64,000 nt of DNA from Stylophora pistillata (lineage: Eukaryota), in the NCBI RefSeq assembly GCF_002571385.2, contig NW_019218071.1, positions 62,001 to 126,000 of the forward strand. The letters are read 5' to 3'. The translations under genes were made by a program, and so were the position numbers. Shown one piece after another: positions 2,261 through 51,790 of this stretch. The notes beneath the pieces are model-generated. The model was not told the DNA's origin and ran no database searches. It was given only the letters and a program-made list of their open reading frames with translations. Positions within the stretch are counted from its first letter, which is position 1, and every line of letters begins with the position of its first letter.

Positions 2261-2430
2261 AAAGTGGATGTCAAAAGTGCACTTTTCAAAGTATCTGTTT
2301 GCTTGTGAAAGTGAATAGGGAAAGTGAATAGGGAAGTTGAATAGGGATTTCAGGATTACATTAAGAAGATTTCACAGAAATATGCTGTGTGAAGGGCGTC
2401 ATAATTCAATTTCTGCTTGGTCTCTTTTAG

Positions 2431-5400
2431 ATCATGGCTCACCAGATCCATGGGGGCATACTGGTCAGCTTGGTCCAGGATCCTATTCTGGTTCAGCTGG
2501 CTCCTACAGCAACAGTTATGGCATGCATCCAAGAGATAGCATGGTGGGTTGCACAGTTTAGTTACATGTACAATCACATTTTTGTTGGGTTGATTTGGTT
2601 TTGATTTAATTTGTTTACAATGTAGGGTTTTGTTTGTTTATTTTTAGAGTGATGTTCGTGGTATTCCCGTTTCAGCATTAGCAAAGGGTCCAGCTATTCA
2701 CCAGCCTAGGGTGGGCACTGTTTATGGTGTTAGAATGCACATTCATCATCTCTGACCAGCATTGTGCTGATTACTTCCTCTTACCGGCTTGAACACAAGC
2801 TTAGCTGGCTGTAATCATTGCAAAATTGGGGTAGACACATAATATGCTGGTGCCACTTAAAGGGTTTCATTGCTGTCAAATAACATTAATTTTAACATGA
2901 CCCTTCTTCCTGTGATTTATTAGCATGTGGGTCTTGCTCTTTGGTTTGTTTTCCTTTTGGCATCTCTCACCTTAAGTCAAAGTGTTGTACATGTGAGAAG
3001 TGAGCATCAAGCTGTTTTGAACAAGGAAATCATTCAATGCTGTGGGCCTGTCTGACTCTTAACTGATCACGGGCTTTTAACACTTCAAAACCTACATTGA
3101 TTTAACATACATTTACTTTTCTATGCTGATTTTTGATTGTCAACTTTACACCTTTAGTGCAAATTTTTAATTTATCATGGAGTAGAGAAAATTTGATGAG
3201 TTTGTGGTGCAAGTGTGTGGTATCTTTCTGTAACATAGCTGTATTCATCAAGCATAATTTGTTAATTTAAAGCCTGCTATTTGCATTCCAAACCATGAAA
3301 CGTCCTATCTATGAAACATGTTATTTTCTATTAACTGCTTCTTCAAAACTTCTTTGTTCATTATAGACTTTTAATTGTGTATCTTACATTCTATATGAGT
3401 ATCCAAAGTCTGAAATATTTCCATTAAATTTTCAATTATTACATTTTTTTTAAGTATTTTTGCATTTGCTGAATGAATCTAATTTTTGAGCTAATTTTTT
3501 GCAACATCAGTAAATGTAGTCGTTACCTTAAAGGTAGAGTGCTTTATCTACAGAAGCACATTTGTGGATACTTAGGATTTGTATTGCTTCAGCTAAGCTT
3601 TTCCACTACATCTTCAAATTCCACAGGGTTACCATCACTTGGGCCATGGTGAGCCAATGGAGAGACTGTCGAGTTTACCACCAATGACATCATTTAGACA
3701 ATCAGGAATGCACCATGGTCAATCATCACCCTATCTTCATTCTTCAGTGTCACCACCTCTAAATGGAAGTGATCCAATGGGTATGGTCTCTGGTTTAAAA
3801 CCAATCCCAGGGCTCAACACTAACTTTTCAACTTACTGGCCAAGTGGCTCATGAAACCTTAGATGGTACGACAATGTCAGTTTGTTTACTAGCCAAACTG
3901 GTTAGTGGAAATCAAAAACTGCCAGCCAAAATCGAATTTCTACTAGTCTCTGGCTAGTGGGCCACTGTTAGTGTCGAGCCCTGTAATCCTTCAGTTGAAA
4001 ATGTACCATAATTCAAGCAAGAGAGCTCAAGTTTTTTAGGAACAGCTGATTTCTTTTTATAGTCCTAGTTGTCATTTCCTCGGAACTTGTACTTAAAAGT
4101 ATGCTGCAAAAAGAGAATGATCTTTTTTTCCAACTACTTAAAGATGATCATTCAATTAATTTTCCCAACTAACAGAGCCATGTTTTTCCTGCTTTCAAAG
4201 GGAGGGTCCCTGCTATTGAAGGAATTTTGGGAAGGGGGCAGTGGAGGTATAATATTGTAGATTGGCTTGTGGTTGCTTTAGTAATTAAAAAATTTCCTGA
4301 CAAAAAATCTGTACAGGAGGGCCTCTGTGAAGTGAATATTTAAGTTTAAAGAAAGGCAAAAAAACTTTTTTGCTAGTGGTGCACTTCTTCGTGTGGATTC
4401 AGGGCACCATATTGTTTTCCTTTTTTCCGTTCTTGTGATATATCAAATTGTTACTTTTTTATTGCAGCCAGTCACAGCTCTAGGGCACCCACATCTGGTT
4501 CACAAACTGGAGACACACTAGGGAAGGCCCTAGCATCTGTAAGTGGACAATCCTGTTTGAGGATGTAATTTAAACAGCCTTACAATTTACTTAGGAAAGC
4601 TGAAAGAATAATTTGCTGCTTGCTAAGTTGTGATTGTCAAAAGATAGTAGAGAGTTTTAGATTCACGTTTGGTGTGTTAACCGCGAACCTTAAACCGCAG
4701 TTAGCGGTTTGAAGGTAGGAGTAATTAATCAACCGACCTCATCAACGGATCTTACATCTTCGGCCCTACGTTTTTGAAGCATGCGCTCCATTCGCTCCCT
4801 GCAACCTCCTCCCTTCCGTTTAACGAAGTTTCCATCATCACTGAAGGCTTCACTGAGTCTTTGAGCAACTTTTTTCCCACTCGGCCGGTTGTTCGGGTCT
4901 GTGGTAACTTGCTTGTCTCGCCAAATGTAAGTCTTGTTCCACAAGCGGCCAACGAAATGGAAGCATACTTGAGAAAAATCAAGAAAAACAGCGATATGTT
5001 TTTCGTGCTAGGGTTCCATTCGATTTCGAATTAACAAAAACCGGCACAGAAATGTTCACTGGTCCCAAAATCGGAAGTACCATTACACGTCTTTTTTATC
5101 AAAACAAAAGTAGTGCTCCGCCATCTTGAATTACCGACAGGATGAAAGTCCTTCATTTAAACACAAAATGTGGCCTAAAGTTTGGTTTTCTACCGTCCCA
5201 AACGCATGGGCCAAAAAGAAAATACCTCAAATGACATATATTTACGGGACATACCAAAGAACGTTCGAATAAGAAAAAGAAAAGCGCCGAGAGAGTTGAC
5301 CTACCTGAAAATGCCTTTTCCGAAGTTGAAACGTGAACCGCTAACGGCAAACGTGACAGCTTGTGTCTGGTCACGTGACTTGTAGCGGTTTGGGGTTACA

Positions 5401-8400
5401 CGTTGTAAGAAACAAACGTGAATCTAAAACTCTCTAGTGTTTAGTGTGGTCTCTAAATCTGAAACTGTTTATAAATATGTCTTAAAAGATTGATTGTTCT
5501 CAAAGATTTACCCAACAGACAATGGTGGGTCATACTCATCAAACCCAACAACACCAGTAGCATCTCCTCCTCCTCCATTGGCCACTGTGAGCGACAGACC
5601 TTTATCAGGTAAGATGTTGTTACCTAGCCTTACCATTTCTGCAGTTTGTTTAAAGAAAATGGTATATGTAGATTGTGATTCAATCGCAAAAAAGCCACTT
5701 GAGGAAGATTGTGAATAGTCACCGGGGTCTGTCATGAACCTCTGAATTTGTTTTATTCTGTCTAACTGTATACCTGTTCCACAACAGTTGCTTTAGATTT
5801 TATTGGTAGGCAGTGTTCATCCTAATTTTAATTATGACAGGTAAGGGAAATTTTCAAGCTAGTAGAGCAATCTTTTTTCCTGTAGCAACTTTAGGTGATC
5901 ATTATAGAGGTTCTACAGTCAGTTAGTTTTAGTGGTTACTGCTTGTAAAGGAGAACACTTTGGCTTTAGAAGAAAAATAGATCTACCTTGATTTAACAAT
6001 GTTGAATTGATGTTATTATAGCTGGCTCTGGAGCTTCAGGACATTCTTCAAGCTGGGGAAGAGCTAATCAACCAACGTCGCCTCCATACGAGAGTCATCT
6101 GCATTCTCTTGTGAGTTGGAGTTTGTCATAGCACTGAGTGAATGATCAATCCTTAATGAACACCCTATTCTCCATACTTTTCTCTATGGATTTCCTGAAG
6201 TGCTGACTGGGTGAATGTGTTTAACAATTCAGATTTCCTTTAGTTTAGTAATCATTTCCTTTCTTCTTGTGAGGTCAAAGTGTTATTCAGGGGTGAAAAA
6301 TGAGGTGCTAGTCACTCATAGAGATCAGAGGATAAAATATCTTGTTCATTTAAGTTAAGTGATTAAACAATGGTTCATCAGGGTAGACAAATGCTAATGT
6401 AAAAAAATGAAGAAACAAAAAGGGCACGAGAATGATAAACATGACTTTTAAGAATTTGTGTTAAGTTTAATTCATTAGCATACATTACTTAACACCTTTC
6501 CCAAAATTAGTGTGTCTCATCAAGGAGATCGCTCTTTTTTCGTTCTTACTTAGACATGTTGATTTTACATTACAGCAAAGCAGAATGGAGGAGAGGCTTG
6601 ATGATGCTATCCATGTTCTGCGCACCCACGCTGAAGGTAGCCTCCCTCCTGGAATGTCACCAGTAGTAGCTGGAAGCTTGCTGAGTGCTGCAGCAGCAGT
6701 AGCAGCAAGTGCAAGTGGGGTTCAGGGTGTAAGTTATTCAGCCTCTGTGGGAAGTAGTGGTGCTTCAGCAGTAGCCATGGATCAGATGGTAAGCCAGAAG
6801 ATTCTGAACTACACTCCCATAGCTGCAGCTTTTTTTTGATTATGAGAGTGGGCCCCTGCAATTCTAGATCATCTCAAAGCAAAAGTCTGTATACATTTAA
6901 ATGTGCATGGGATGCCCTCCCCTCAAAGATGTTATAGTGAGGCAGGGGATACATGATAACACAGCCTAGAAAGTAAATTTGTCTAAGAAAGGTACTATTA
7001 TTAGTTGAACTAGTTACACTAGGCTAGCCTTAAAAGTAAAATTGAACAGCTAGAGAAATGTTGTCACATTATTTGAAAGTATTGTGTGCGTTGAAGTGAA
7101 AGTTCTTTAACTGTTGTTAGGTTAGAAAAATAAACTCGAAAATAGTGAATTATCTGTTTTACCTGTACTGGTAATTTACAAAGAAAAACGGTAAAAGTAC
7201 GAAAAGTTAGGATATCTCAGTCATTTCCTCAATAAGTAAGCTACAAGAAACTGTTGAAAACTAAACTGCACTTGATAATCTTTGTTGATGAAACTCTGTT
7301 ATTCTTTAGAGTGGTGGACATAGTGGAATGGAAGATGATCCAGGAATGGCGTCACCAAGTACCCTATCAAGTAGAGGAGCAGGTTCACAAATGTCCCCCA
7401 GTAACTCAGAGACCAGTGAATCAAGATGTATGTACATTTCGATGTATTCTATCAGTAATCGGGATTTCTTTCTTTGGCAGTGGTTTTTTGAAAAGAAACG
7501 ATTTGATTTGTTGACAAAAATGTCGAGGTGGTTGTAAGAAATTTGACTCGCCGTAGAGGAAGACATTTTTTTTCAATTCAACCTCCCAAAAAAATTCACG
7601 TGCATAAGGCGACTGAAAAGCACATTCCAGAAATGTTACTTCAGGCTCTCACTTTACAAAGACAACGTACCATCCTTTTTTTTTAGTTCAACACAACCTT
7701 GGTTATGTTGATTAAGAGAAAAAAGCCTTCTAAGCTACTCTGATTTGACTGGTCATCATAACTATATTGATATATTCACACTGGACAGATGAAAATATTA
7801 TCATCTCCGTGCAGGTTGGATGTGTAAGGGAAAATTCTAGTTTGCTTATAATCATGGATTAAGTAGGTTGTCTTTCTGCTCTGTCAGATGGTTCTAAAAT
7901 GGACACAGGGGGTGACAGTGCAAAGAGCAACAAAGACTCGTCATCAAAGCAAGATATGAAAACTAATGGTGATTTGGCGGAGGATAGAGACAAGAGGGAT
8001 TTGATTGTGGATGATGATGATGATGATGACGATGATAAATTGACAGAAGATGGTGGTGTTGATGACAATGGCCGAGTCAGGGTTGTCAGGGAACAAGAGC
8101 GGAGATATGCAAATAATGCCAGGGAAAGGTATGATCTTGAAAAAGCGTACGCACAGGCAGGATGAAGCAGTGGTACATTAGAGTCTGATACCCGGGTATC
8201 TCTAACTACTTATTATCTAGATGGCTGAACCCATGTCTGTGAGACCAAAACTGAAACTACTAAATACCAGCATACTGTAAATTTGTGTGGTGATCTTGTA
8301 ATGGTTCTTTTAGCAACGGTTAGTTCAAGTTAAGAAAATTATTACTATTTTAGCATACCAAAAAAAAAAGGGGCAATTTGTAAGGCGGGTGTATGATAAC

Positions 8401-10630
8401 TCCAGTCTTTCAAGCGTCTTTAAATGTAGACCATTTCAGACTGAAATTTCGATATTATTCTTAATGGCTTTGGCTTGAAATTTTATGTACTGGATACTTA
8501 CACCATGCTTTTTTTATGGAATCATTAATTAGGCTGATTGTTATTGAAGTCTTCATTTTGAAGATAAGCCTTTTTACTCGGTACATCTGCAATGCCTAAC
8601 ACATTTGGTCCCCAGGAGGAGGTTGGAAGGCAACAGTTTTCCAGTGTTTTTCTTTTTATGGTCTTCTTTCTCAGAAAAGTTGAAAACTTTTACCGAGTGT
8701 GGCCTATGCCTGAGGCTTGATAAATTTTTTAGCACCAAAAATTACTGTGCGCACTTGTCTCACGCAACTGAAGACAAAGTTTTTCGCAAACCAAACAAAC
8801 ATTTTCCAAGTGCGTACGGGCTCTAAGTAACATTTTCACAATCACTGAATGATGCAAAAATAAAACGTTAAGCAGACCCTGCACTGTGTCAGACTATACG
8901 TAGAGAGAGAGTCCACTTCCATGAAGTACTTAAGTTGTTAAGCTCTCGAAATCTCCACTTCGTTTTCACCTGAGACTTTTTAATCCGGTGGCGACATTTT
9001 TTATAACCGCAAACTAGTGTCGATCGTAAAAGGCTCAAACCATTGCGACTCTCCAGAATCCCAGCAAGAGACAGGGAAAAAAAAAAAAAGATCCCAGATC
9101 GATTTGATATTCAACAGTCCAATTTTGTGCTCTGCACCTTGCCTTAACAGGTTGAGAGTTCGAGACATAAACGGAGCCTTCAAAGAATTGGGAAGAATGT
9201 GTATGATGCATTTACAGGGTGACAAATCCAACTCTAATACTAAACAGACTAAGGTGAGATTCTAAGCTTACTCCCCACAAAACTCTTTATTACAGGATGA
9301 GGGTTCGAGACATCAACGGTGCCTTCAAAGAATTGGGCAGAATGTGTCAATTGCATTTAGAGAGCGACAAACCCCAGACCAAGGTAACAAAAAAGACAAA
9401 TTTTGTCACTTCCAAAGGTTGACTCTTTCTGTCATCTCCCTTTGCAAGTTTCTGGTCAGTTTTTATTCAGTGACCATGTCACAGAGTAATTGAACGTTGC
9501 ATGTCACTCTCCAAGATGCCCTTGATCTCCAGGACTGATACTACCACTGTGTTAAGGAGGCTTCTTTGTTTGTTATATAGATCTCGTAAAGGCCTTGACT
9601 GATGGGAACGAATAACATATGCAGCGTGAATTTGCAAATGCTTTCACTAGCACCTCAGCTTGTAATCATACCCCCCCTGTTGTAAGTGTGTATCGTTATG
9701 ATCGTTAATTTTCTCACATATGGCTTTGTCCCACAGCTTGTAATCCTTCACCAAGCAGTATCAGTTATCACAAGTTTAGAATCGCAAGTACGAGGTAAGC
9801 TGCGAGTGATTTCTTGTTGTCTTCTTTGTTCTGGAACGGAGAAAGAGGATAGGTTTAGGGCTTGGTGAGGATGAGGTTTTCCTTTACCTATGAGTCAGAT
9901 AATTATGAAACCAAACTAAGCCCTTTTGATCAAAGCCCTTGAAGCAGCAATGAACTGTAATCTCCACCGGCTGGCAGTTTAACCATTTAAAACATTTTCG
10001 GCTTTTCTTAGAGCGAAATCTCAACCCCAAGGCAGCTTGTCTTAAAAGGCGCGAAGAGGAGAAAGGTGAAGAGGAAGCCCCGGAGAAAAGAGCTGTACCG
10101 GGAGTGGACAAACCCTTTGACACCTCAGGGGCAGCAGCAGGGCGTGGGAGAGGCAGACGAGGAAGAAGGTCGTCAAGAGGTGGGTGGGAGTTTAGTCAAG
10201 TCGCCAACTTGGCGGAAGTTCAGTTTCGTAGCAAACCGTTTTGTTCGTCGTCTATTGTGAATAGTTTGTGATGGAAATATCGCCTTGTCGGACGAAAGAG
10301 ATAGATTGACGGACTAACTAATCGACCGACCTATGAATTATTATCAGTTTTCTCTGTTACACAATTCCTTCCAAATCTTTCTTTCACGTTTGATGTTGTA
10401 AGTTGAAGGTTTAAAGGGATGTTCGAAATTTTCATGACCAGTTTTATTCAAATGCATTTTCCTACTCTTAGTTTAGGAGTAACATCTGATGTATCAGTTA
10501 GCAACAACTGATATCATATTTCATTGCTCTAAAAGGGGCCTATAACGGCGAAGGCCGAGGAATGCCATGTGGACCACTGAACGGCTATGAACCAAAGGAC
10601 CATGGAGATCCACCCTCCTTAAATGCGTGA
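2431..10630 (+). CDS. TCF12: Class I bHLH E-protein (TCF3/TCF4/TCF12, daughterless family); multi-exon, 5' exons lie upstream of the window
   Basis: Phase-consistent GT-AG exons: 2431-2543, 2648-2710 (tentative), 3627-3780 ([11 protein letters not shown]), 4468-4538 ([13 protein letters not shown]), 5506-5608 ([18 protein letters not shown]), 6022-6110 ([11 protein letters not shown]), 6576-6788 ([18 protein letters not shown]2-like), 7310-7427, 7888-8128 ([11 protein letters not shown]), 9151-9253 or 9296-9383, 9737-9794 ([19 protein letters not shown]), 10012-10179 ([18 protein letters not shown]), probable last exon 10536-10630. The motifs are diagnostic of E-proteins; the paralog symbol is nominal. 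Confidence 0.95.
3808..3983. mobile_element. MITE, hAT-like termini
   Basis: 17-bp TIR CAGGGCTCAACACTAAC / GTTAGTGTCGAGCCCTG (1 mismatch); no clean 8-bp TSD. Confidence 0.6.
4649..5436 (-). mobile_element. Non-autonomous PIF/Harbinger-like element retaining a Myb/SANT-like fragment
   Basis: TIR AGAGAGTTTTAGATTCACGTTTG / CAAACGTGAATCTAAAACTCTCT. 3-bp flank AGT on both sides (or TA if the ends are 1 nt inside). ORF 4944-4729 reads [35 protein letters not shown], like a trihelix/Myb-SANT fragment. Confidence 0.7.
9151..9253 (+). CDS. E-protein bHLH helix1-loop exon, copy A ([34 protein letters not shown])
   Basis: Flanked by ttaacag and gtgaga, 103 nt (3n+1), in frame with the flanking exons. 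Confidence 0.9.
9296..9383 (+). CDS. E-protein bHLH helix1-loop exon, copy B ([29 protein letters not shown])
   Basis: Flanked by ttacag and gtaaca, 88 nt (3n+1), same phases as copy A; absent from the ORF track. Confidence 0.92.
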
Positions 10631-23900: not shown

Positions 23901-24117
23901 TACTTAGTTCTATTTTGTTTTCTTTCTCAGGAAAGGTTCCATGTTACTGCAAATCGACGTTGATTCGGTGAATGGCGGACTCAAGTTGAATCCTGATTTC
24001 TGTGTGGATTTTGGAGAAGAGCCATATGGCCCAGCTCTCGCTCATGAAGTGCGTTATCCGGGGGGAGATTGCTCCTCTGATATATGGCTGAGTGAAAGCA
24101 GATCTGCAAAGTTGTAG
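14809..24117 (+). CDS. SELENBP1: Selenium-binding protein 1 / methanethiol oxidase, 11 exons, 482 aa
   Basis: Exons 14809-14821, 15801-15970 ([25 protein letters not shown]), 16562-16632 ([12 protein letters not shown]), 17875-17989, 19771-19891, 20577-20756 ([19 protein letters not shown]), 21076-21254 ([11 protein letters not shown]), 21925-22003, 22494-22615 ([23 protein letters not shown]), 22936-23147 ([23 protein letters not shown]), 23931-24117 ([13 protein letters not shown]). Total 1449 nt, all phases consistent. Confidence 0.97.
14929..15081 (-). mobile_element. Penelope-like element terminal remnant carrying a minimal hammerhead motif
   Basis: Flanked by the direct repeat CTGAACTAA (14920-14928, 15082-15090). 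Minus strand reads GCT-CTGACGA-TGGGATAACGCTC-GAAACGTC-TGC. Same family as 16648-16889 and 26517-26673. Confidence 0.65.
15041..15068 (-). ncRNA. Minimal type I hammerhead ribozyme core (partly degenerate)
   Basis: CUGACGA..stem II..GAAACGUC, matching the minimal PLE hammerhead architecture; mismatches in stems I and II. Confidence 0.5.
15495..15582. repeat. 43-bp tandem duplication
   Basis: gagttatgatgggccataacargtatgaaaatwcggcgtagtt twice, 2 differences. Confidence 0.9.
16648..16889. mobile_element. Penelope-like remnant with inverted (hairpin) configuration
   Basis: 13-bp TSD TAGTCTTACTATA (16635-16647, 16890-16902); arms about 16711-16790 and 16807-16886 are inverted; the hammerhead core is mutated. 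Confidence 0.7.
17019..17241. mobile_element. Abundant MITE with TTAACCCT-like ends (piggyBac-like)
   Basis: ctaatttctccttacaatattacccctgaatcacacattaaggtc...gttagggtgcaaagggtt; related copies near 6160-6300, 34335-34440 and 35990-36170. Confidence 0.6.
17478..17605. repeat. Imperfect (ATT)n microsatellite
   Basis: Direct inspection; it produces the spurious poly-N and poly-I ORFs. Confidence 0.95.
18391..19643. mobile_element. Foldback DNA transposon, IS3EU-like, with CpG-rich 20-bp palindromic tandem arrays; centre is an assembly gap
   Basis: Ends TACGGTGGCTCTCAAGGGCCATCCACC...GGTGGATGGCCCTTGAGAGCCACCGTA. Perfect 6-bp TSD GTTATG. Inverted arrays of TATCGCGCGATAGRACAACT at about 18493-18721 and 19258-19553. 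Confidence 0.88.
18722..19257. other. Assembly gap (N)
   Basis: Run of N. Confidence 1.
20192..20350. repeat. Long imperfect palindrome (MITE-like hairpin)
   Basis: caccgaatcaaaatatggcgtccaatttgaatt...aattcaaattggacgccatatttcgattcggtg. Confidence 0.8.
20372..20508. other. Assembly gap (N)
   Basis: Run of N. Confidence 1.
21460..21890 (+). mobile_element. tRNA-derived SINE
   Basis: Head GCCGCCTGGTTAGCTCATGTTGTAGAATGCCGGACT..GAGGGTTCAAGCCC has A/B-box-like motifs but no acceptor stem; about 350-nt body ending in ggatatggcgctataaaaa and an AT-rich tail. Confidence 0.75.
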
Positions 24118-24599
24118 GCTCAGCCTTGGAAAATCCTGGGATCATAAGTTTGTAACTTGTACCCGATTGTTTCTGGAAACCGTAATATATTTGAATGTTA
24201 GGACAAAAAAATAAGTCGTTCACTGGATCTAAAAATGTTAAAGTCGAATAAGTTAATGTAGAGGGCAGATCTAAACTGCGCAATAATGTTAAAGTTCACA
24301 TTTATTCCTCAGTGAAGGTGCACTTTTTAAGAAATTGCAATAATTTTACTCACAATGTAAGAGCATTTTGTTTTTGTTGTGAACCCAACACGTGCCCAGC
24401 TCAGACGAGATTTGTTTCTTGAAATTAGGCAACGCTTCCCTTACAAAAGTCTGAAAATTACTTTAGTCTTCCCAAGAGAATATATACCCTTGGTTATCTA
24501 TAAAGTCCTTTGGCGCGTCGTTGTCCTTTGTTCTGTAATTTGCTTAGTTTTCAAATCTTTTCTCCCACAATAGACTTAGTGCTTTTCGTATGGAATTAA

Positions 24600-26224
24600 G
24601 GTTACTTCCTACCTTCAGAGGCCGAAAAAATCGTTTTTTTTTTCTTTGGACTAGATTGAAGTTAGACATTTGAACTAACGTTTACAAAAAAAAAAAATAA
24701 AAGTTAATCAATCAGGAAGGTGTCATAATCTCGTAATTGGGCGAACCCCCAGGGGGAATGTTCGCGGCAATTTTTATGTCGTTTGCATATTTTGTTTACA
24801 TCGCGCACTTGACAAAATTCACACGTGGAAGTTATCTGCACGTGGAAAGTCTTTTCTCATGGATAAAACACATAACTCAAAATTAGAGAGGAGTCCTTAG
24901 GTAAAGAAAAAAAAAAATAACAGACCCAAAGATGAGAGAAATGGCAACATTTTGTCAAAAAAAAATTCCTTGCTGAAAGCGACAAAGGCTCTTGGTTTGG
25001 CCAGGAGCCTTCGGCAAGTTCGGCATCTGCTGAAGATCGGCAGCATTCGATTATCCTTGGGGCTAGCAGCTTAAAAATTAAAGTCAACACCACAGAAGGT
25101 TGTAATTAAGACTCTTCGTCGGAATCTGAGGAAACCGATGGAGAAAAGAAGAATGCGACAGATTTACCCTTTCTGCCGCGGGTTTTTCCTTCGCCGACTT
25201 TGTCCATTACTAAACGAGCAACAGAGCAAGATAAAAACGTGACTGCTGCACAATACTTTTCCCGGGAAAATCTTGATCCATTGTCATTGACGCCAGGAGG
25301 CTTCGTCTTCTCATTGGTTTGCGGTTTCAGGAGGCGAGATAATCTCCTGGTGTGGCGCTAGTTGTTTAGAAGCTAAAATCTCGCGTTTGATTTTGAGAGG
25401 AATACATCCACTTTGAGTAAATTTATAGGGTGTGTAGATTTGACCGATTTTCGTGAAATTTCGCCAAAACAATCCTTACATGATGACGAACAAAAGTGTG
25501 TCAGGAAATTTTGATATTTGAAATATTTTTGACGTGATATCCATTTACGCAACACGCCTCGCATATTTTTTGGTACTCTTAACTTTCCATGCGAATATCT
25601 AGGGTGCTTACCATTTGGCCAAAAAATTCGGAAATTTCGGTTTGAAGTCAAACTGGTTAGGTAATTTTCCGGAAATTCCTTTCGGAAATTGTGGAGTACC
25701 TTGAGAGGTACTCCTCTTTTTCCATTCGGAACGGAAGGTCATAAAATTCCGTTTCCAGGCCTTTCCGCTTGGGTTGCCTTGGGTTGGAGCGGGACGAAAC
25801 GCCTGATGGATAAATGGTAAGCTCAATCTCATCCGGTTGGTCCATGGATACTCCCTTACCTTTATGCTACGGTTACGCCAATCAGATTTTTCTTACAAAT
25901 GGTAAGCACCCCTAGACAACCGATCAGAATATCGGAAAAGCCGACACACTTTTGTTGAGTGATGCTTTGTGAATGAGACTGTGCAGCCATTTTTCTCGTG
26001 CCGCGGGATCCGATACTCGATAAATTCAATAGAAGGACCCTCGGTCGTTTCACGCCTTACCGGCTCCTGACACTTCCTAAATGAAAAAATCGCCTAAATT
26101 ATATTTTCATCGTAAACTGCATTTATTAAGCATTGTTTTGATGTATAGTTTGTTTGGGTTTTCTTCAAACTTGCGCGCGTACGAATATTTTCCCGAAGGA
26201 CACACGCGAAGGTAGGAAGTAACC
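24600..26224. mobile_element. Non-autonomous Kolobok-like DNA transposon
   Basis: Perfect 17-bp TIR GGTTACTTCCTACCTTC / GAAGGTAGGAAGTAACC with TTAA on both sides (24596-24599, 26225-26228); GG..CC ends favour Kolobok over piggyBac. Confidence 0.8.
25602..25911. mobile_element. Harbinger/Tourist-like MITE nested in the Kolobok-like element
   Basis: 16-bp TIR GGGTGCTTACCATTTG / CAAATGGTAAGCACCC; 3-bp TSD CTA. Confidence 0.85.
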
Positions 26225-31300: not shown

Positions 31301-34300
31301 ACAATATCGTCGTAAAGGCAACACTCAAATTTCAACTCCCCGAAGACCTGTATTAACTATTTACGAAGCATTATAAGTCCAATAAAACACTGGATCTTAT
31401 ATCAACAAAGCCCCTCCCGTCGATCTACAGCTTAGCACAGAATGTAAACCTCACCTTCTTCTTCTGGGCGTCCCTTTTCTCGCGGCTCTTTTTGTCTTCC
31501 TTGGACATGTGGGTACTAAAGAAAGATAACTAATAAGTGGTTGGATATTTCACAACCAGGATCGCAAGATAAATTCTCCTCCCTACTGCCTTCCATGCAT
31601 TTCTTATAGACCTTGGCTCTGAGATTTTGGTGTTAAATCAAAGAGTAGGTTAATATACATTTTTGTTTAAATAGAATAAGAAAGATGGTAAGTTTTGAGG
31701 TCGATAAAGAAATAAAGTAAGATATTTTTCGTCCTGTCACGTTCCTTTTTTTTCGTCTTGCCTTGATAGTATTTTTTTTTCTTTTTTTTGTTTTGCTCTC
31801 AGTACCAGTCTGCTTATCAGTGTACCAATGTTACGGAGCGAAAATACATCCTAGCGACCTCTGGTTGTACCTGCCGCTTACCACCCTCCTTTTCTGTGTG
31901 AACCTTGTTATTCGGATCAGATTTATGGCCCGCGCGCTTTGCGCTTGGGCCATAGATCCAAGCGCAAAAAACGAGGTTCCGTAACTTAAAGTACGGCCCG
32001 AGAAAAACGGGCACAGTAAGATAATTATTTATCATAAATCTGGGTTTAAATGGAGGAGGAAGACTTCAATTCCAATTCGACCAATCGAAGTGCACCTACA
32101 AACTGAGAGTTACAATAAGAGTGTATAACTGTCAATCTCAGAGTCCGCGTGTTAACCAATACACTACCGCATCTTCTCATCTTCAAATTAAGCAGCACTT
32201 TTAACAGCCTTCAAATCTCTGATTACTTTGCAAATATAATTTATCAGAAAACACTCACCCACTACGAACACTGGCTGGCCTGTCCTTTGAACCACCGGTT
32301 GGAGCATTCAAATTTCTTGAAGGACTCCCTGCCTATAGATGGTCAATAAAAACAAGGAGATCATTTAGTCTATCGCACATCGCACATGGTTGAGACACAA
32401 CTCTGACTAAACTAATAAATTACAAACTTACTTCTTCTGGAGATTTTTTAGAAATAAGAAGTCTTCTTGCCACAACTTCCTCGTGAGAGAGAGCAAAGCT
32501 TGAAAGCACCTAAAAGGAAAAGAAAAACATTTAACCAGAGTATGAGACAAACTGCTTTCAGTAAATGTAGCCAAGTTATGAGCATGTCGTTAAGTAAGAG
32601 ATGTACCGGCTAATCATTGTGGTTTCAAATTTAAAGTAGGCTTAATAAAGGAAGAAGAAATTCACAAACGAAAGCAGGTACATTTGGCTTTTAGGGCGTG
32701 TCCAGGCATAAGTTTCATGCTCTATGCTTCAGTTGTCAGTACCAGATGTTCTAATAAATGCTAACCTAAAGCTAATGTTAGGTAGGTCATATTTGATTGC
32801 TTACTTTGCTTACTTTGCATAGTACGCACGTGTTGTTTGGCTTGATTGCAGCTTATTACCAGGCTTTAATTTCATCCTTAGGCAAACACCACCCATGCAG
32901 GTATCAAGATCCTCATTAGAACATGTTTGTGTAAGTTTTATCATAAGCTACATGTAGATTCTGTAAAGAATACAAGGGACGACTATACTCTTCACTCACC
33001 TCTGCTAATTTAGATGCTCCATTGTCACCGATAAGATTGCTTCCAAGATTAAGAGACAGCAGAGTTCTATTCATTCTTAATCCCTGACCAAAGAAGGAAA
33101 ATGTTTGATTGGAGCCATTTGACATCCATCGTTATTATTGTAATCAGTTTTTGTTTAGTGATCAAAAGATTGGTAACTTACATGACTATCAAATGCTCTC
33201 TTTCAGGAGCAACGACTAAATGCTAAACTGAATTACAAAGCTGTGCACAACTCTGCTTTTGTTGCATGAATCTTCTGCAGAAACCCCACACCTCCTGGAT
33301 GGTAGGCTACTTTACTCTAGTTACCCTCCTCCAATATTCTGCCACATTTCTAACAGTTTGATGGCTTTAATTTATACTCCAGATGGAGAGAGTCACGAAG
33401 AGGGGGGAGGGGGGGGGAGGGGACAGTTTTGTGAGGACATGATCCCCTGCAACTTAAAATTCCTAGCCCCATGTTTCAGGCACAGATCATAATGTAATCC
33501 ACGCCAGACACAGTCATCCTTGCTTACCTTTGCTATCCAGGAAGCTCCTTCACAAGTTATTTTGTTATAGCATAAGTTCAAGGTTGTCAGTGACTTGTTG
33601 GCTGTCAATGCTCTCCCAATCATCCTTGCCCCCATATCATTGACGTAGCAGTTCCTTAAGGACAAGTTCTGTACCCTAAATTTTTAAGAAGATCATAAAA
33701 TTGATAAACCGATGTATCCAAACATCAAATAATTCAAGAGTCAATGGGTAACTACCTTGCGTTGAACATTTGTACAGGGCACTGAAATTTACAGTTTAAA
33801 AATTGGGTAACTGTGAAGAACAACTCCCTGAATGAACCCGTTGGCTAACAGTCTGCTGACAGTTGGATAACTGTGGGCCAAGTAATGGCCAAAAGTCTTC
33901 CAAAAGTCGGCCAACAGTTTTAAGTACACAATTACCAATAATTGTTCAAATGGATGCTGTGTATCATTCGGTCACATTTATTACATGTTTTCCACTCGCA
34001 TTTTCAATGACTACACATATGACATGTGCATGTATGACAATATTATTGATTAGACAAGTGTACTGTGTAAAAGTAGTTTCCTGACTGGTGTACCTGAACT
34101 AATGACCCATAAATTACATAATTTCCCTGCTCTGGCTGTCTTCACCCTCCCCAAATTAAAGATTTTAGTATCAAATTCAAAATTAGATATAGTTTTCTAT
34201 CTTTAGCTAACGTTAAGTAATTTTTCATCATCATTGAGTGTTCTTTCTTCACCCCCACCCCCCACTGGTGACTGAATGATCATGCAAAATTTCTCTTGTC

Positions 34301-41919: not shown

Positions 41920-43157
41920 GTTTATTCCCAAGGCTAAGAAATGGCAGCGGCATCTTCAACGCCCAACTTACCTTGGTGTCCCGTGAGTGAAAAATCCCGC
42001 CTGTGTCGGCTCAAAAGGGGAGTATTCTCACGCGCTCTCACTTAGAAAGTAGGTTTAACAGCTACATTTTGGAAAATAAGGGCCGAAAGAGGCCTGAATT
42101 CCTTAAGAACTGTACATTTTTTTCATCTCCGGCTCGTGCGGCATGGTTTTTACTGTCTCGCATTTTGAAAATATGTTCATGTATTGAAAATGGATTTAGA
42201 TCGCATTTTTGTTTCTAACCTATAGGGAGCCGCAAACATTTATGCTTTGACATGTGTCTTCGTCACGACCAGAGCTATCAAGGAATTTGTCAGTTCAGAC
42301 CGGCGTTTTTATGAAAACCCGCCACATCTATTTGGCAAGTTACCATTATAATTGGGACAAAACGGTTTTTTTTTTTCTTTTTCGGTGACCCTCTAACACG
42401 GGAAAAAATCTTCATAATCTTCTCGGTCAATTTTCAATTCATTAAATAAAACTTAAAAGCATCCACCCGCGCCGAATTTTAAAGAGCATAAACCAACCTT
42501 GTCTCTTTGAAATTATTCAAAAGGCACGCCAAATGTGAAAAAACTGTTCGGAAAAACTATGTCATTTTCCTCTAAGTTTACTTATAAAGTCTGTCCTGTC
42601 TTGCCTAGCTTGTCATACACGTTTCCACCGAAAGTTTTCGTTAATTTAAAAGTCCGTCATATTCATGAAAGCATAACGAACTCTTTATCAATAGATGACC
42701 TGCCAAGAAGCTGGTACTGGTGAACGCCATCACCTAAACAAGCCCATGGCTTTGATTATCTCGACCAATCACATTACGGCGTTGAATACAATGCAATGAT
42801 CTACGAAGGGGACGATGAAATGAAAATGTCGGAGATTTCCTGACCCAACAACAAAAAGTTCTATTGAGAAAAAAATGTTAGTTTGGAACTTATGAGGAAA
42901 GTCACCACTAAGACTGATCTGATGTAATATATCACCTGTGACGAAAATAACTCGCGCCATAAAGTAACCAGACTAAAAATTGTCATTTCAATACGAGTTT
43001 TGATTGATTTTACAATCTGTGATTTGGTTTAAAGGACTTAGGGGGAGAAACAAGAATACTGATCCACGATTAGGACTTGGCCGGGCTATCCGTCAGTTAT
43101 CGAGTTTAACTCGAAGTTGCACTGAGCTAGCTTTGTTTAGCAAGGAGAGATCCCACC

Positions 43158-46100
43158 ATGGTTTCTACTTGGTCCACCGACATAAGATGGTCTAAGCTTC
43201 GTCAGTTTGAATACGGAGAACCCAACAACCACCTCGGAGAATTGAAAAAATCTTTAAACACAGCTAGCGACGAAAGCGACGACGAATGGTTGGCTCAGCT
43301 CGAGAGAGACTACGCCACAGCGAAGAGAAATCATCGAGCTTATTGGACTTCTTTGGAGAGAGCATTGACACTAGCGGTTATCATCTTCATTATTATTACC
43401 ATATCTTTAGTTTTTGTACTAATATTTAAACCGTATAATATGGCCGTGGTATTCGGTGGCAGTGGACACAAACCGGACATCTGTGAGTCGCCAGGGTGCA
43501 TAGCTGCGACATACAGTATTTTAAATCATCTTGACAAAAACGTCAATCCCTGTGACGACTTTTACAACTTTGCTTGCGGAAACTGGTTCAAGAGCAGTTT
43601 TATTCCAACCGGGCACTCCAAATGGACAGCTTTTCATCGAGTTTCGGACAACAATCTGATAATACTGAAGAAACTTCTCGAGAACAAACAGCTCGGCTTA
43701 AATGGAAGTTCTACAGTTTTGACGAAAGTGCGAGATTATTTTGCTGCTTGCATGAATAAATCCGTGATTGAAAAACGAGGCGCAGACCCTGTCAAGGAAC
43801 TTATTCACTTTGTAGGTTCGTGGACGATAACCAACGCCTCAGAGGTTGGACCCTGGTCACCAGAGTCGTGGAATTTCGAGCAGGCCCTTAGTAGAATTCA
43901 CAGATTGAAAAGTATGCCTTTGTTTTATATGTTTGTATCGGCTGATGACCGGAATTCGAGCCAAAACATCATACAGGTATGAAACAGTGAAATATTTTTG
44001 CTTATAAGAGCAAAATTTTCTATCAATATTAATGACCTCGCGTCTTCTGTCTTCATTCTGTGGTCTAGGCTAATAACTAAGCTATTTAGAAAATTCATTG
44101 ATGAAAGATGCTCTATGACTATCACTCCTCTCCTTTCTCGACTTTTTCGACGAGCCAAGTGGCCCATAAGGCCGGCGCTTAACTCCGGTTTCCGTAGCAT
44201 AAAGCGACTAGGAGTATTTCTTCTCCCCACTGGATGGGATGCTAGTCCTTTGCAGGGTTACCCCCAGCATTAAATTCACCGATACCTATTTAAACACCTG
44301 GGTCAAGAGAGGCACTGTGAAAGTAAAGTGTCTCGCCCAAGAACACAACACAATGTTCCCGGCTGGGGCTCGAACTCGGACCACTCAATCCGGAGTCGAG
44401 CCGAGTCCGGAGCCACCGCACCTCTCATTTTCGACTTTACCAGCCCAAAATGGATTCTCACGAATGAGGTGCTGATGTGCAGGTCTCACGGTTTTACGTA
44501 CACTTTGTAGCCTGCGACTAAAATCTTGCCAAGTGATAAGATTGCAATTAAAACCTTTACGACGACAATTTAAGGAGGCTCAGGGAAACACAGGGTACCT
44601 TTCCTGTCGCTGGACTAACGCCTAAAACCCTCACTTTTTCAAGTATGTCGGGGTGGAGAAGTCAACTTTTAACTCGAACTTTTTCTATGCCTCCTTAGGT
44701 TCAGCAAGCTGGCATAACACTATCAGACAGAGATTATTACTTCCGGAATGAATCAGATAAGGTAAATATAAATTGACTTTCTGGCATGGGCAAATGCACT
44801 TCCAATTACTTGTGAAAGGGAAGTTAAAGTTACGGAGCATTTGTTGTACAGTCGAATCTTTGTGAACGTAACGGCAATTCGGAAAGAAGGAGAAGCGTCC
44901 GTCAACCTGTCTCGATCCCAAGCTGAAAATCGACATATCTAAGCTAAACATTTGATCTTCATCTTCAGTCCCCTTCTTTTTTGTTGATGTTAGTATTACT
45001 TAGTTCTCCATTAAAAAATAAATAATTTCCTTGGTAACAGTAAGTTTTTTTAGCCTAACGGTTACGTAATTGCTTGATTATATAGGTCTTGCAGGCGTAC
45101 AAAGAGTTCATGGTCAAGGTGTGTTTACTCTTGGGAGGTGAAATTAACAGCACACGGCATCAGATGGAGGAAGTGTTTCAACTCGAAAAGAAATTAGCCA
45201 AAATTTACGAACCAAAAGATCGACTCAGAAACATGGAGCAGATTTATCACAAAATGACGGTAGCTGAACTTCAGCAGCTTGCACCAGCGGTAAGAAACCA
45301 GATTCAGCTCCTCACCCTGCAAATAAGAAACTAGTTGTACTTTTTATCTCGAGGGAGGGGAGAGGGGAGTCGGAGGAGTTTGGGGGGGATCATATGTTTT
45401 TCAGGGGGGACGTAGGAAGGATCTGTCGTCTCTTGTAGAGTATAGAGTGCGGACTAAAGGAAATTGACTGTCACAGAGGGGGGGGGGGCATTACTGTGCT
45501 ACAGGACCCCAGGAGGAGGGGGACCAGGTCGTTATATAACAATAATGGTGTTTAGGAACCAGTTGTTGTTTATCGTCTGGAAGGGGGAGGATTTTGCGAG
45601 GGGTTCAATTGGTTTTCAGAGGGAACGGAGGCGGGATCAGTTGTCGCCAACAGAGTATAAATGGGAACTATTATGTAGAAAATTGGCGACCAATGTAAGA
45701 GGATCATAATAATATTACTATCAATCGTGACACAACCAAAATCTTCCGACCCTCTCCCCTTCCTCCCTAGGTAAGTTTTAGATAGTATACTACTAGTCCT
45801 TGTCAGAAGAAGTAAGGCTAACTACGTTTCCCTTTCAGCGGACAAGTAAAGCCACCTAAAGGAATTTCCATTGTTAAATTTCCATTTATTTAATATATTT
45901 TATTATATTACGATACATGTTTTATGAGGGTCTAAACGGTAGATATGAAGGATAGAAAAACGTTTACCCACGATTATGTTGAATCGGTGTTAATTTTTTT
46001 GTTCATTCTCCTCAGATTTCATGGTTGGATTACATGAATGCGATGTTTAGCAGCCCGGTCACTCATCAGGAGTATGTGGTGGTTTATACCCCAGAATACT

Positions 46101-49100
46101 TGAAAAACATGTCGAATCTTGTCATTAGAACGGATCGAAGGTAATGATGAAGTGATTTGATAATCAAACAATCGTTTTTTAAACTCACTCGAGTACGGCT
46201 GTAACAGCCTTAAGTGGAAGAACTCTAATGCAGATCGTTTTAACCTGAACTTCTTTACTATTTTTGGACAGCTCTTTACTGCTCCGTAACTGATAAAGGT
46301 GAAAAATTTCAGAAGTTTAACATTAGCGGTTTTCAAAACTTTCAAGCGATGACGACAAGTCTCTTAAATGGACGGGGGTAAGGGGAGGGCGGCCTAAAGG
46401 AAAGGAAAAGATAAATACTTTGTATTTAGTCTATGTCAACCAAAGCGAGGATGGGGCTTGCCGTCATAATTACCCTGCGCTTAATTATTAATCTGCTGAC
46501 AAGAGCTTATAGGTGAATCTACTTTGTGCTTTCAATTTACAGGATTTTAGCAAATTACATGGTTTGGCATCTCATCAAGCCCCTAATCGGGGAATTGTCC
46601 AAACCGTTTCGTGATGCTTCGCTGGAATTGTTAAAAGTTGAGAAAGGAGTGGAGACCGGGGCTCCACCTTGGAAGAGCTGTGTCACAAAGACTAACTCGG
46701 TCATGGGGTTTGCTACAGGATACTTGTACATTAAGGAAAGATCAGGAAAAAATGCGAAGAAACAGGTAGAGGATATACTCATCTATTAACATTTCGAGTC
46801 GTCCGTGCAACGTCGGAAAATTCCGTGCTTTTTAATAAAGTTTTTTTCCTTCCCATCCTATGTCATTTTTCACCCATTTAGACTGTGGAGAAATTCTCAA
46901 CTGAGTATCGAGATAAATCCGCGATTTCATTAGCTTTAGCCTCCTTCGCATTGTGACTGGTCAGGAAACTAAAACTAGCTACGTCTTCAATTGATCACTC
47001 GCGTTTTCTGCGCTTCATGCGATCAACTGCGCTTCAACGGCACTTCAACCGCACTTCAACTGCGCATCAACCGGATTCTTCTCGTCACTAGAGCTTGACC
47101 ACATCATGATATCTTCCCTTGCTTTGAACGGCCCCTGTGATATTCTCGGTTTTGTTCAGGTCACCCAGTTGAAAAGCGCTCTAGCTGAAGGTCGGAGATC
47201 CGATATCATGTGTAAATCACTTTAATTTAGACAATTATGGAATCTTTCAGCAGTAAGGTTGGGATATGATTTAATTTTTATCTCCTTGTTTTGCCTCAAA
47301 TAGGCGGAAGAAATGATAACTGAGATCAAAGGGGCTTTTAAAGCAAATTTACCCCATGTGAAGTGGATGGACGAAGAAACGAGAGAGAAGGCTTTAAACA
47401 AGGTAAAGTTGGATGTGTCAGAGCTCAAGATGCTACGAGTGTGACGTTCGAGGAACATTTTGATTTGCACTCACGAGTTAAAAATGTTTAACGTGTTCAG
47501 TTTCCTCTAAATGTCTAAAGCACAATAAACTCTGACATACTTTTTATTGCTAATTGCAGCATGACAGGACGGAAAACGCGTGCACTGTAAGTACCTCCCG
47601 TTGCCTCATACAAAGCCTTAGAAAACTTTTCTAAGGCTTTGTATGAGACAACTTGAGGTAGTTACGGTGCACGTGTTTTCCGTCCTGTCATGTTTAACAC
47701 ACTCGTTCAACAAATCGTCTCGAAAAATCAGTTACACAATCAACGCGCTTCATTTGCCCACGAGTTGCATATCGTTGAGCCTGATCCAGGCATTCAGTTA
47801 GCAGAACGGAGCGAATAGTGGCGGGAGAGCGAAAACGAGGGAGGCTTGGGTCGAATGACGTAAAAAATTAGGTGACTTGACCCAAACCTCTCTCGTTTTT
47901 TCACTCCTTCGCTGCTATCATGCTGTCAAGTGATTTACTTCTAACTGTACGGCAGGAACAGATTGCATATCCGTGACTAACGATAAAATGATTCTACTGC
48001 CATGTTCACTTCTTTTTCAGATTACGGCAACTTTCGACATGATCGGTTACCCAAAATGGATAGAAGATCCAGAAAAACTCGACGAATACTACGAAAATGT
48101 ATGTTTTGATATTAAAAGTTAGCATTTTAAAGGAACCTTACCTCATCGAAGGATATTAGGTTTGGCTGCATTTGAGGTGGGGTTGATCAATTCAACTTGT
48201 GATATTCATTAAAATGTGCATTTTTTTTCCAGCTCACAATAGATTCCGAAAAAAGCTTCGAGAATTATCTAGAGGCCAGACGATTTTTCCACAATAAGTC
48301 CATAAACAGACGACGAAAGCCAGTGGACAGGCGAGAGTTAGTGAAACTTTTCCTATGATTCTACCTTTGACATCATGGAGCGTTTTTCATTTTCGTTTAC
48401 AACCACACACATTTAGGCCTTTCACTTTACTCCAGCTATTACGGAATAGATAGCGAATATGGTGTCCAATCATATTGCAGCAATCATGATGAAACACTAA
48501 TTTGTGATATTGTTGCTTTTGTCAGATGGCATATGACTCCTGCCGACGTCAACGCTTACTATAACTCGCCAAACAATTACATAGGTAAGAAATCTTCAAA
48601 TTTGGCTTTTTTGTTGCTGACTAAACGTTTGCCTGGTTTGGGTAAATGCTTTGATATTTTCATCCTTCATTTCTGAGTTATGTTATTTTTCTTAACAGCT
48701 TTCCCATCAGGAATTCTTCAACCTCCATTCTTTGATCCGCAATTTCCACAGTAAGTTCTGTAGATCTTCTTCGTAGCATTTTGATTTCTATGGCGATGAG
48801 ATAATCGTCAGATAAGCTTTCCTTGAGCTTGCACACCGATTCCTTTGCATATTTTAGGCCATTGGCATTTATCTCTGTACGATATCTTACGAGAAGACAG
48901 GAACGAGTAAGACTGTAATCGGGTGGTCAGCACTGTAGGACATTATTCTCGAGTTTGTTTCCATTACAAAGTAAAATAGAAGATTTCACACTGAATATTT
49001 TTCATAGCCAATCTCGCAAGAAAAAAAAAGTGTTCGTAACCGTTTTTTTTTTATTCCTTGACCATGGGGGTGACTTTTGGTTCCACTCATTCTTACTTGC

Positions 49101-51790
49101 TTCCGGCAAGTTGTTTTGTACAAGTTGTGCGGTATGATCAGAAAGTGTTAACGTCCAACATTCTTTATCGCGGCGTAGGTCAGTTAATTATGGCGCAGTT
49201 GGAGTGGTAATGGGACATGAACTCACCCATGGATTCGACGATCGTGGTAAGTTTGTACGATAACCAAAACAGTCCTAGGGACACATTTAATAAGTAAACA
49301 CTTTCCTTACCATCAACTGAGGCCATGTCTAAACTCATAAATTGCATTGACTTCAGTGAAGATTCAAACTTCTATTACATGGCTTTGATGAAAATCATCT
49401 GAAATTATAGCGTGCGAGCGCAAGAGAGAGGGAAGTTGGTGTGCCTTTTATTTTCCTCCCACGGTTTAAGGAAAATGTTGTTTTTGCCAAGAAAAGGGAA
49501 TAATTTCGATATGACACCACGATAGCTTACAACGATAAACAGCTTGACATGGGGATTTATTATCACTTTTTTTCTTCTTTTCTTCTTAAAGTACGCTATG
49601 AGTTTATGATGTTATTTATCAATCAAACCATATTGCTCGCAGGTCGGATGTTTGATGAACATGGTAATCTGGCCAGCTGGTGGAACAACCAATCAGTGAA
49701 AGCCTTTCAAGAACACGCCTCATGTATGGTGAAACAATATGGCAACTTCACTGTTGCTGGAAAGAACGTAAGATTGTCATTTTTTCCTCTTATGTTTCTC
49801 TGTTATGTGGGAAAGTGCATGAAAGATTTATGTTTTAAAAGATAGCAACGAGTGAAAATTTTAATACATACTTGCATACAGCATCTTAAATTCTAATTTT
49901 ATATGACCTTATCCTTTTTCCTTGCCGCAGGTCAATGGAAAGCAAACACTTGGCGAGAATATAGCAGACAACGGAGGGCTCAAGCTTTCCTACACAGTAA
50001 GTTTGTTCCTCTGCATGGCTGAGCGGTGTTAGTTAGATAAAATACAGCAGGTTATGCATGAGCGTAATTTTCTCAATGCATATGCACAGTTATTGTTGCT
50101 TGGTCGAACACTGGAGATTTTATCCGGAATTTCTTCAAAATATAGGTAAAATCTTCTCAACAAAATTACCTTATGATGCTTCGAACCTTGAATGATTCAG
50201 AGGTCTTGCATCAATTCCTTCGCAGGTAGCCCAAGCTCGCACAAAGAGCCTCCGTTAAAATGCAAAGTAGTGTGTACGTTGCACAGTGGGCGAGATATAA
50301 GGATTTGTATGGGACTAAAACAGTCGCTCTCTCGGCCTAAAAATCTAACTAGTTTTTAATAGAAAAAAACAAAACACACAAACCTACCTCGCATAGGAGG
50401 TTTTTCCTTAAGTGATCGAGCCTTCTGGCCTGATTTAGGGCCGCTTAGCTTGGTGTTACTTCATCTGCTTTGCCCTCTATATTGGGATTGGGCTCGGGTT
50501 CCGATACGTCCATGCCAATTCCTCTTTTGTCGAAATGTTCTTGTTGATTCATTTGTAGGCTTACCAGAACTGGGTCGCGAAAAAAGGCAGAGAACTGAAT
50601 CTACCTGGCTTAAATTTCACTCCGGAGCAATTGTTTTTCCTTGGATTTGCTCAGGTAAACTAAAGGTTATCTCTCGGCTGGATTTCGAATCTGAAATTAT
50701 TATCAATGAAAACTTAATTTTTGAATTGATTAAAAGAGTGTAAGTCTAAATTTCACATTACAAGCTATACAGTTATCGAGCTTTGGAAGTAATATTATCA
50801 ATCATGTTGAAGTAAACTTGGCAAATTTCGGGCCTATTTCTGATATATGTGTTTCATACATGTGAACGTTAATATCAACTTTCCGTTTTAACTCTTCATT
50901 CCGGCCAGGTATGGTGTTCAGCAAGTTCAGACGGGCGGGCCCAGCATGCTTTGCTGACTGATGTACACAGTCCTGAGAAAGTGAGGTGAGTTATGGATAA
51001 ATGAGTCTCCGGGACAGTAAGTGTTTCTATCCCAGAGAACCGCTGAAATCCCTGGATGAAACGGCATTTCTTGAATTAAGACTTTAACATTGATTATCAC
51101 ACAATAAGTAAATGTAATAAAACTGCGTGGAGTCCAATTCGGTCTGTAATTATACGATTCATAACAAAAATTTGTTTATCACGGGTATGTTTACAGACTG
51201 AATTGGACGACGCGAAGTCTTATGACCGATTAATCAAGATTACAATTTCCGAGAAAAGAAGAAAATCCAAGCAATGAAAGAAAAGAAAAATTTGCATTAA
51301 AAGACTGACAATGATTTAGATAAACTACTTTGAATGTGATTGGCTGATGAACCGTAGTACCCGATAACAAACTTTATGATAACAACTTGGCAAGTGAATA
51401 AGTGGAAAATAGGAGTTTTATAATCCATTCATAATCAAAAAAATTGTAATTTTTATGATTAGTGCATGATATCGAACTTTTTATACTTGATTTTGAGTGA
51501 GAATCTTTGAGCAAGCAAGAGATAGGTATCCGGCATTAACGTGCGAATAAATGAATATCAAGTGGAAGGCCTTTTACAGGAATAACCCTTCTAACTGTAT
51601 GTTTCAATGCCTCTTCACGCATATAGCAGTGACACAGTTGACTGCAATAAATATTGAGAATAATCTAACCGTTATGACATTATTTTGTAGGGTTCTAGCA
51701 GCAGTTTCCAACTCAAAGGAGTTTGCAGAGGCTTTTAATTGTCCTGTCAATAGTTCTATGAATCCGATAAACAAGTGTCATGTCTGGTGA
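43158..51790 (+). CDS. Endothelin-converting enzyme / neprilysin-like M13 metallopeptidase (type II membrane)
   Basis: Exon 1 43158-43976 (TM helix; [22 protein letters not shown]). Further exons at about 44699-44761, 45086-45289, 46016-46140, 46543-46764, 47304-47402, 48021-48098, 48233-48336, 48526-48583 (VNAYY), 48700-48750 ([11 protein letters not shown]), 49180-49246 ([10 protein letters not shown]), 49643-49767, 49931-49996 (GENIADNGG), 50559-50654, 50909-50985 (HSP), 51691-51790 ([18 protein letters not shown]). Confidence 0.95.
44150..44420 (-). mobile_element. SINE with CORE-like segment
   Basis: Minus strand GGTTCGAG-like B-box region followed by gtgttcttgggcgagacactttactttcacagtgcctctc (MIR/CORE-like); a degenerate relative lies near 33290-33390. 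Confidence 0.55.
47560..47692. repeat. 133-bp near-perfect palindrome in an intron of the M13 gene
   Basis: catgacaggacggaaaac...tacaaagccttagaaaa-c-ttttctaaggctttgta...gttttccgtcctgtcatg. Confidence 0.9.

Follow-up and report, generated by a model that had tools for sequence, protein, structure and literature searches.

A conserved PTS1-type tail on one of two SELENBP1 paralogues of stony corals suggests a peroxisomal methanethiol oxidase

Gene structure and transcripts

The window (the whole stretch of DNA analysed, 64,000 nucleotides of a Stylophora pistillata contig) carries a SELENBP1/SBP56 (methanethiol oxidase) gene, here called paralogue A. Table 1 gives its features. The gene is intact, and all of its introns are GT-AG. 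The 482 aa product showed 0 differences from P0125, whose source label is Stylophora pistillata selenium-binding protein 1-like. Exon ends of the model were snapped to GT/AG, and a neighbouring acceptor would give 481 aa instead. Pfam SBP56 (PF05694) was found above the cut-off in four of the five exons scanned, and the contig held nine PF05694 matches.

Table 1. Features of the paralogue A gene (positions in the window)
Feature	Position	Strand	Evidence
Whole gene of paralogue A (SELENBP1/SBP56, methanethiol oxidase): 11 exons, 482 aa	14809..24117	+	Model, Pfam, identity to P0125, RNA contigs
Exon 1 coding part, start codon	14809..14821	+	Joint in 2/4 runs
Exon 2	15801..15970	+	Model, Pfam scan, contigs
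Exon 3; His76/His77 = human His73/His74	16562..16632	+	Model, alignment, contigs
Exon 4	17875..17989	+	Model, contigs
Exon 5; His140/His143 = human His137/His140	19771..19891	+	Loose contig end at 17989 continues into exon 5
Exon 6; Asp191 = human Asp189	20577..20756	+	Pfam; loose contig end at 21075 continues into exon 6
Exon 7; Glu254 = human Glu252	21076..21254	+	Model, alignment, contigs
Exon 8	21925..22003	+	Model, contigs
Exon 9	22494..22615	+	Model, contigs
Exon 10	22936..23147	+	Model, Pfam scan, contigs
Exon 11 coding part	23931..24117	+	Model, contigs
Terminal motif of the family, [10 protein letters not shown], containing Cys468 = human Cys466	24061..24090	+	Sequence comparison
Linker SESRS with a basic -5 residue; sequence differs between corals; pLDDT <50	24091..24105	+	Alignment, model
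PTS1 tripeptide AKL + stop codon	24106..24117	+	Consensus (PMC6770196)
3' untranslated region	24118..24643	+	Spliced contigs; AATAAA at 24696

The 3' coding end of the gene (24061..24117, +) translates as [18 protein letters not shown], then stop. The original prediction, that the family terminal motif is followed by eight codons to AKL-stop, was borne out by this reading, by the intact gene and by the matching contigs. The tail SESRSAKL lies at 24091-24114 (+) and its TAG stop at 24115-24117 (+).

RNA contigs were available from four runs of four studies, of which one was recorded as polyA RNA and three were guessed to be RNA. In all four runs, contigs spliced 23147>23931 and then ran unbroken beyond the stop to about 24620-24640. 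The AKL tail is therefore the expressed 3' end. Introns 2-3 and 7-10 were seen in 4/4 runs and intron 1 in 2/4, and introns 4 and 6 were visible as loose contig ends that run into the adjoining exon. No joint within the last exon and no other transcript 3' end, either of which would have spoken against the prediction, was present in the contigs of the four runs; contigs drop rare isoforms, and a minor alternative end may exist. An origin of the tail from another 3' exon or from read-through of an intron was rejected, as the contigs of all four runs showed no other joint.

At the 5' end, an in-frame stop lies upstream of the start codon, and the model has no N-terminal extension (the exon 1 joint was supported in two of the four runs). 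The longer N-terminus of model P0123 was not supported, with exon 1 spliced as in the 482-aa model. No PTS2 pattern was seen at the N-terminus, which was judged by eye only.

Fold and copper site

The predicted model of paralogue A is a beta-propeller with a mean pLDDT of 90. The best structural match was 2ECE (TM 0.84, E 9e-49), to which the sequence also matched (E 4e-113), and the protein is 71% identical to a primate protein. Enzymes of this family break down methanethiol, a toxic sulfur gas. Methanethiol oxidase is described as copper-dependent, with H2S, H2O2 and formaldehyde as products (PMC13603461). Six human residues (H73, H74, H137, H140, D189 and E252) are given as required for activity in PMC10362175, and the role of C466 was taken from PMC10362175 and PMC13603461. 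Paralogue A has an equivalent of each of these seven residues (Table 1; human numbering carried over through a primate protein, P0031). The six copper/catalytic residues were invariant in 48/48 aligned proteins, and G225 and H329 (human numbering) were likewise present in paralogue A. Judged from its sequence, the enzyme looks intact.

The C-terminal tail as a PTS1

The AKL-stop of paralogue A fits the strict PTS1 consensus [SAC][KRH]L, as given in PMC6770196. A broader PTS1 pattern is reported for 2,638 of 46,848 zebrafish proteins (5.6%; PMC8919083). All nine distinct coral tails matched the broad pattern, compared with this 5.6% background, which is more than chance would give. Position -1 of the nine tails was always L, position -2 was K (eight tails) or R (one) and position -3 was A (seven tails), S or T. 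Positions -8 to -4 drifted, with two to four residue types each.

Residues 472-482 had a pLDDT below 50 and no secondary structure in the predicted model. This is compatible with a free, probably flexible tail, low confidence being no proof of exposure. In PMC13603461, Cys466 is placed in a loop facing the cavity. Its equivalent lies only 14 residues before the end of paralogue A, which makes access of PEX5 to the AKL less certain.

Across all proteins fetched, 74 of the 98 distinct tails of 5-25 aa fitted the broad pattern (again against the 5.6% background), a count that is inflated, as the tails came partly from a profile built on such tails, many of them represent one clade and they are not independent. 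Tripeptides were swapped among PTS1-type forms (AKL, SKL, ARL, ANL, SNL, PKL, SKM, AKM, SKI and SRM). These data bear on an incidental match, in which the tail is kept for another reason, such as capping the propeller or binding a TPR or PDZ protein. Tail position 3 was mostly T (38/74) or M (29/74, one clade), and in a frog and a green alga VET also opened tails that lack a PTS1, as an incidental match would allow. Tail length, however, ranged between 6 and 18 residues, with the final three remaining PTS1-like; a cap would not track the PTS1 substitution pattern, and the tail is missing in vertebrates and in the second coral paralogue described below. We consider an incidental match highly improbable.

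Two paralogues in stony corals

A PF05694 search of the Stylophora genome gave two SELENBP1 loci, paralogue A and paralogue B (G000:C963). Paralogue B is 78% identical to paralogue A and stops at SSDIWL, without a tail; its locus matched P0011 at 95-100% over ten pieces. A hidden PTS1 reached by stop read-through in paralogue B was rejected, as the frame beyond the stop ends in YI-stop. In cluster look-ups, both copies turned up in 12 named species of stony corals, of the genera Stylophora, Pocillopora, Orbicella, Oculina, Desmophyllum, Acropora and Montipora; Porites had one copy each in two species.

The signal was conserved in close relatives, a point on which the prediction had hinged: 12 of the 13 named coral A proteins ended in AKL or SKL and one, from Desmophyllum, in TKL (broad pattern 13/13, strict 12/13). 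Among the coral B proteins, 14 of 15 named ones stopped at DIW+1 without a tail, and one was truncated. In a tree built from 102 proteins after their tails had been cut off, A and B were sister clades (SH-aLRT 99 each, 95 together) and anemones lay outside the coral A+B clade. Hence, we infer that the duplication is older than the diversification of the stony corals sampled.

Paralogue A is, in our assessment, likely to be a peroxisomal methanethiol oxidase that is imported by PEX5 and stands beside a tail-less, likely cytosolic paralogue B. Peroxisomes import folded proteins. Paralogue A would fold in the cytosol and probably take up its copper there. PEX5 would then bind the exposed AKL and bring the protein into the peroxisome. 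There, methanethiol, or alkyl thiols related to it, would enter by diffusion and be converted to formaldehyde, H2S and H2O2, the last of which would be cleared by peroxisomal catalase. Paralogue B would serve the cytosol. With a tail on A and none on B, the coral would thus cover both compartments.

Paralogue A might also be peroxisomal and carry out a different reaction there, such as oxidation of another thiol, disulfide formation or buffering of selenium or copper. Three substitutions made plant SBPs disulfide synthases (as cited in PMC13603461), and human SELENBP1 takes several alkyl thiols. A changed reaction is nevertheless very unlikely, as all six metal-site residues are kept and only six core columns were fixed differently between A and B (8 A versus 8 B proteins). 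Only one of these changes, V266T, altered a highly conserved column in every A protein.

Host peroxisome machinery

The components that import of paralogue A would need were sought in the Stylophora genome. A PEX5 TPR region was found as exons; a TPR exon, located via a motif, matched PDB 1FCH at E 1e-52. A Pex14_N domain was also present. The host genome holds two catalases, L013 (G000:C337) and L012 (G000:C27). Acceptor scans predicted for one catalase a candidate PTS1-type last exon with the end ASL, and for the other a best acceptor that runs straight into a stop, with no PTS1. That only one of the two has such a candidate is a point against the peroxisomal reading of paralogue A. As a side observation from these predictions, the two catalases may likewise divide by compartment.

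Distribution beyond corals

The proteins compared were named proteins selected for tail comparison, and the set was widened by cluster look-ups and by a profile made from tailed ends, which is biased by design. A full-length search, whose ranking barely depends on the tail, gave PTS1-type ends in three of eight named animals that were neither vertebrates nor scleractinians: Glandiceps (AKL), Antedon (SNL) and Acanthaster (ANL). A search at the level of 50% clusters gave 29 new matches that reached the terminal motif, of which one had a strict and two had looser PTS1-type ends.

PTS1-type ends recurred in acorn worms, sea cucumbers (AKL), starfish and many molluscs. Of the selected named proteins, 10 of the 11 that came from hemichordates or echinoderms fitted the broad pattern (four strict), as did 16 of the 20 that came from molluscs (none strict; NKL, NKM, PKL, HKL, SKI and AKF). 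The broad pattern was absent from the selected named proteins of anemones (0/6), sponges (0/3), lancelets (0/3) and hexapods plus a horseshoe crab (0/9). The vertebrate proteins examined stopped at the family motif, and the single exception came from a frog (VETDK). Large clades, drawn mainly from JGI/merc sources, ended in AKM, SKM, AKL, ARI or SKI. One plankton clade lay nearest to arthropod clusters, with the Atlas entry 'commonest Arthropoda'; our guess is that these are copepods.

The same arrangement as in paralogue A probably holds for the hemichordate and sea cucumber orthologues (AKL), and starfish and many molluscs would have it with weaker signals. When tested in human reporter assays, PKL and SNL produced puncta; TKL was weak, and NKL stayed almost entirely in the cytosol (PMC6770196). 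The mollusc cases are therefore less secure. The weak forms NKL and TKL also bear on mussels and Desmophyllum, for which they would weaken the peroxisomal reading.

Weak forms raise the question of dual location, with an inefficient PTS1 that leaves most of paralogue A in the cytosol and sends a fraction to the peroxisome. The AKL lies only eight residues past the family terminal motif, many of the non-coral forms are weak (NKL, NKM, ANL, HKL and SKI) and lineages in which one gene was found would need both pools. The corals point the other way: the tripeptide is strong in 12/13 named A proteins and a second gene without the tail is present, so a weak signal is not needed there. For paralogue A, we regard dual location as improbable and keep to import into the peroxisome.

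The original prediction had proposed that this lineage may place methanethiol oxidation together with catalase in peroxisomes, and had pointed to DMSP, in which corals are rich, as a methanethiol precursor. The peroxisomal part gained support from a canonical, conserved and expressed AKL, a probably flexible tail and the presence of PEX5 and PEX14 in the host; a coral-specific or DMSP-linked explanation did not. The signal is no coral speciality, since hemichordates, echinoderms, molluscs and plankton clades have PTS1-type ends too. The link to DMSP is unsupported because the anemone Exaiptasia, which we take to be symbiotic, lacks the tail while the deep-water coral Desmophyllum, presumably without symbionts, keeps it (as TKL). 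A coral- or DMSP-specific adaptation is thus not supported by the distribution of tails. The signal was lacking in both named freshwater molluscs, but equally in the marine Nucella, Sinonovacula, Tachypleus and Branchiostoma.

A second, independent duplicate pair is found in Saccoglossus: P0429 and P0476, whose tails (THTAKL versus THTADM) differ only in the last two residues. This pair parallels the coral split. It is also a ready-made control pair for targeting.

Two further tail types were observed. In a bivalve-like clade, short gene fragments (P0017, P0158, P0160 and P0161) diverged past the first tail residues, which suggests that the PTS1 (SRM/ARM) lies on an extra exon and could be alternatively spliced. 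In the SBP56 fragment P0076, the tail consisted of a hydrophobic stretch and then basic residues, which resembles a tail anchor.

Evolutionary history of the tail

The tailed proteins (42 of 102 rows) did not form one clade. Constraining them to one cost 739 log units (p-AU 2e-63), and a single ancient peroxisomal paralogue common to all phyla was rejected. The signal was therefore repeatedly lost or gained. The free tree of 102 rows had 12 tail changes; it was a quick LG+G4 tree in which deep nodes are poorly resolved.

Two histories had similar step counts: an ancestral tail lost in several lineages, or about six separate gains. The HKL-ending P0014 was sister to anemones plus corals in the 102-protein tree, the T at tail position 3 recurred across phyla and short stubs were kept in hexapods, all of which speak for an ancestral tail. 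Loss of a tail takes one nonsense change. Against an ancestral tail stand the poor resolution of the deep nodes and the non-PTS1 tails of the frog and the green alga that also open with VET. Ancestral retention with later losses is slightly favoured.

A wider scenario can be offered only tentatively, and we hold it to be somewhat doubtful. Methanethiol oxidase may have been peroxisomal in the cnidarian-bilaterian ancestor and may have remained so in stony corals, hemichordates and echinoderms as well as in most bivalves and in abundant zooplankton. In that case, the cytosolic form of vertebrates, insects and anemones would be derived, and the peroxisomes of marine invertebrates would be an unrecognised H2S source and an oceanic methanethiol sink.

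Comparison with known systems and literature

Human SELENBP1, C. elegans SEMO-1 (Y37A1B.5), Roseobacter RdMTO and paralogue A are all PF05694 proteins of the copper-dependent methanethiol oxidase family and share the beta-propeller and the seven residues from H73 to C466. They differ in their ends and locations. SELENBP1, SEMO-1 and RdMTO are reported as cytosolic, whereas paralogue A has an eight-residue tail ending in AKL and a tail-less paralogue beside it. In the vertebrate proteins the chain stops at the DIW motif, and paralogue A continues for eight residues. It counts against the peroxisomal reading that homologues with a reported location (human, C. elegans and plants) are cytosolic or nuclear. 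The cytoplasmic reporter of C. elegans Y37A1B.5 had GFP placed after the ORF (PMC6812014), and any C-terminal PTS1 of the worm protein would therefore be hidden.

Paralogue A can be compared with peroxisomal oxidases imported through PTS1 and PEX5 and, in its chemistry, with yeast alcohol oxidase and copper amine oxidase. Like such one-carbon oxidases, paralogue A would release formaldehyde and H2O2, and a C-terminal signal would place it with catalase. Unlike them, it has a different fold and substrate, would release H2S and is an animal protein whose location is predicted only. Alanine:glyoxylate aminotransferase differs in compartment among mammals. It resembles the present case in that a targeting signal was repeatedly gained or lost within one enzyme family. 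The difference is that corals and one acorn worm divide the task between duplicated genes, with the C-terminal tail as the switch.

No paper linking SELENBP1 or selenium-binding protein to a PTS1 was found; papers behind a subscription, or supplements such as the peroxisome proteomes of invertebrates, could list the protein. Among the papers listed on methanethiol oxidase and peroxisomes, judged from titles and the beginnings of abstracts, none dealt with location. The main text of the SBP evolution paper (PMC10277263) contains neither 'peroxisom' nor 'targeting', and 'peroxisom' is absent from the accessible sections of PMC10362175 and PMC13603461. The PTS1-type end of SELENBP1 is thus a real, conserved and apparently unreported feature in several marine phyla, from which the compartment is predicted.

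If the prediction is true, thiol oxidation and H2S generation would be added to the functions of animal peroxisomes, and in several marine phyla a well-studied 'cytosolic' enzyme would be assigned to a new compartment. Corals offer a natural pair of proteins, 78% identical, with and without the signal. The value of compartmenting a reaction that releases peroxide, sulfide and formaldehyde is thereby directly testable.

Neighbouring features in the window

No peroxisomal or sulfur genes were noticed among the neighbours in the window. The neighbours were an M13 peptidase (43131-51790), a filamin-repeat protein (57824-58309), a MAM plus trypsin protein (59568-62400) and a weak leucine-rich-repeat match at about 32900-33700 (-). 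Upstream, at 2300-10300 (+), lies a gene with a bHLH-like exon, E-protein/TCF12-like by eye; one exon was scanned and gave no Pfam match. Porites models that carry the label transcription factor 12 fall into clusters with paralogue A, and one of them ends in AKL. These models are probably annotation fusions that show conserved adjacency.

Open frames at 12618-13025 (-) and 62750-63487 (-) resembled retrotransposon remnants by eye, with no Pfam match. Intron 4 contains a 20-bp tandem array (18488-19558) in opposite orientation on either side of an N stretch. With its inverted flanks of about 150 bp, the array resembles a non-autonomous element.
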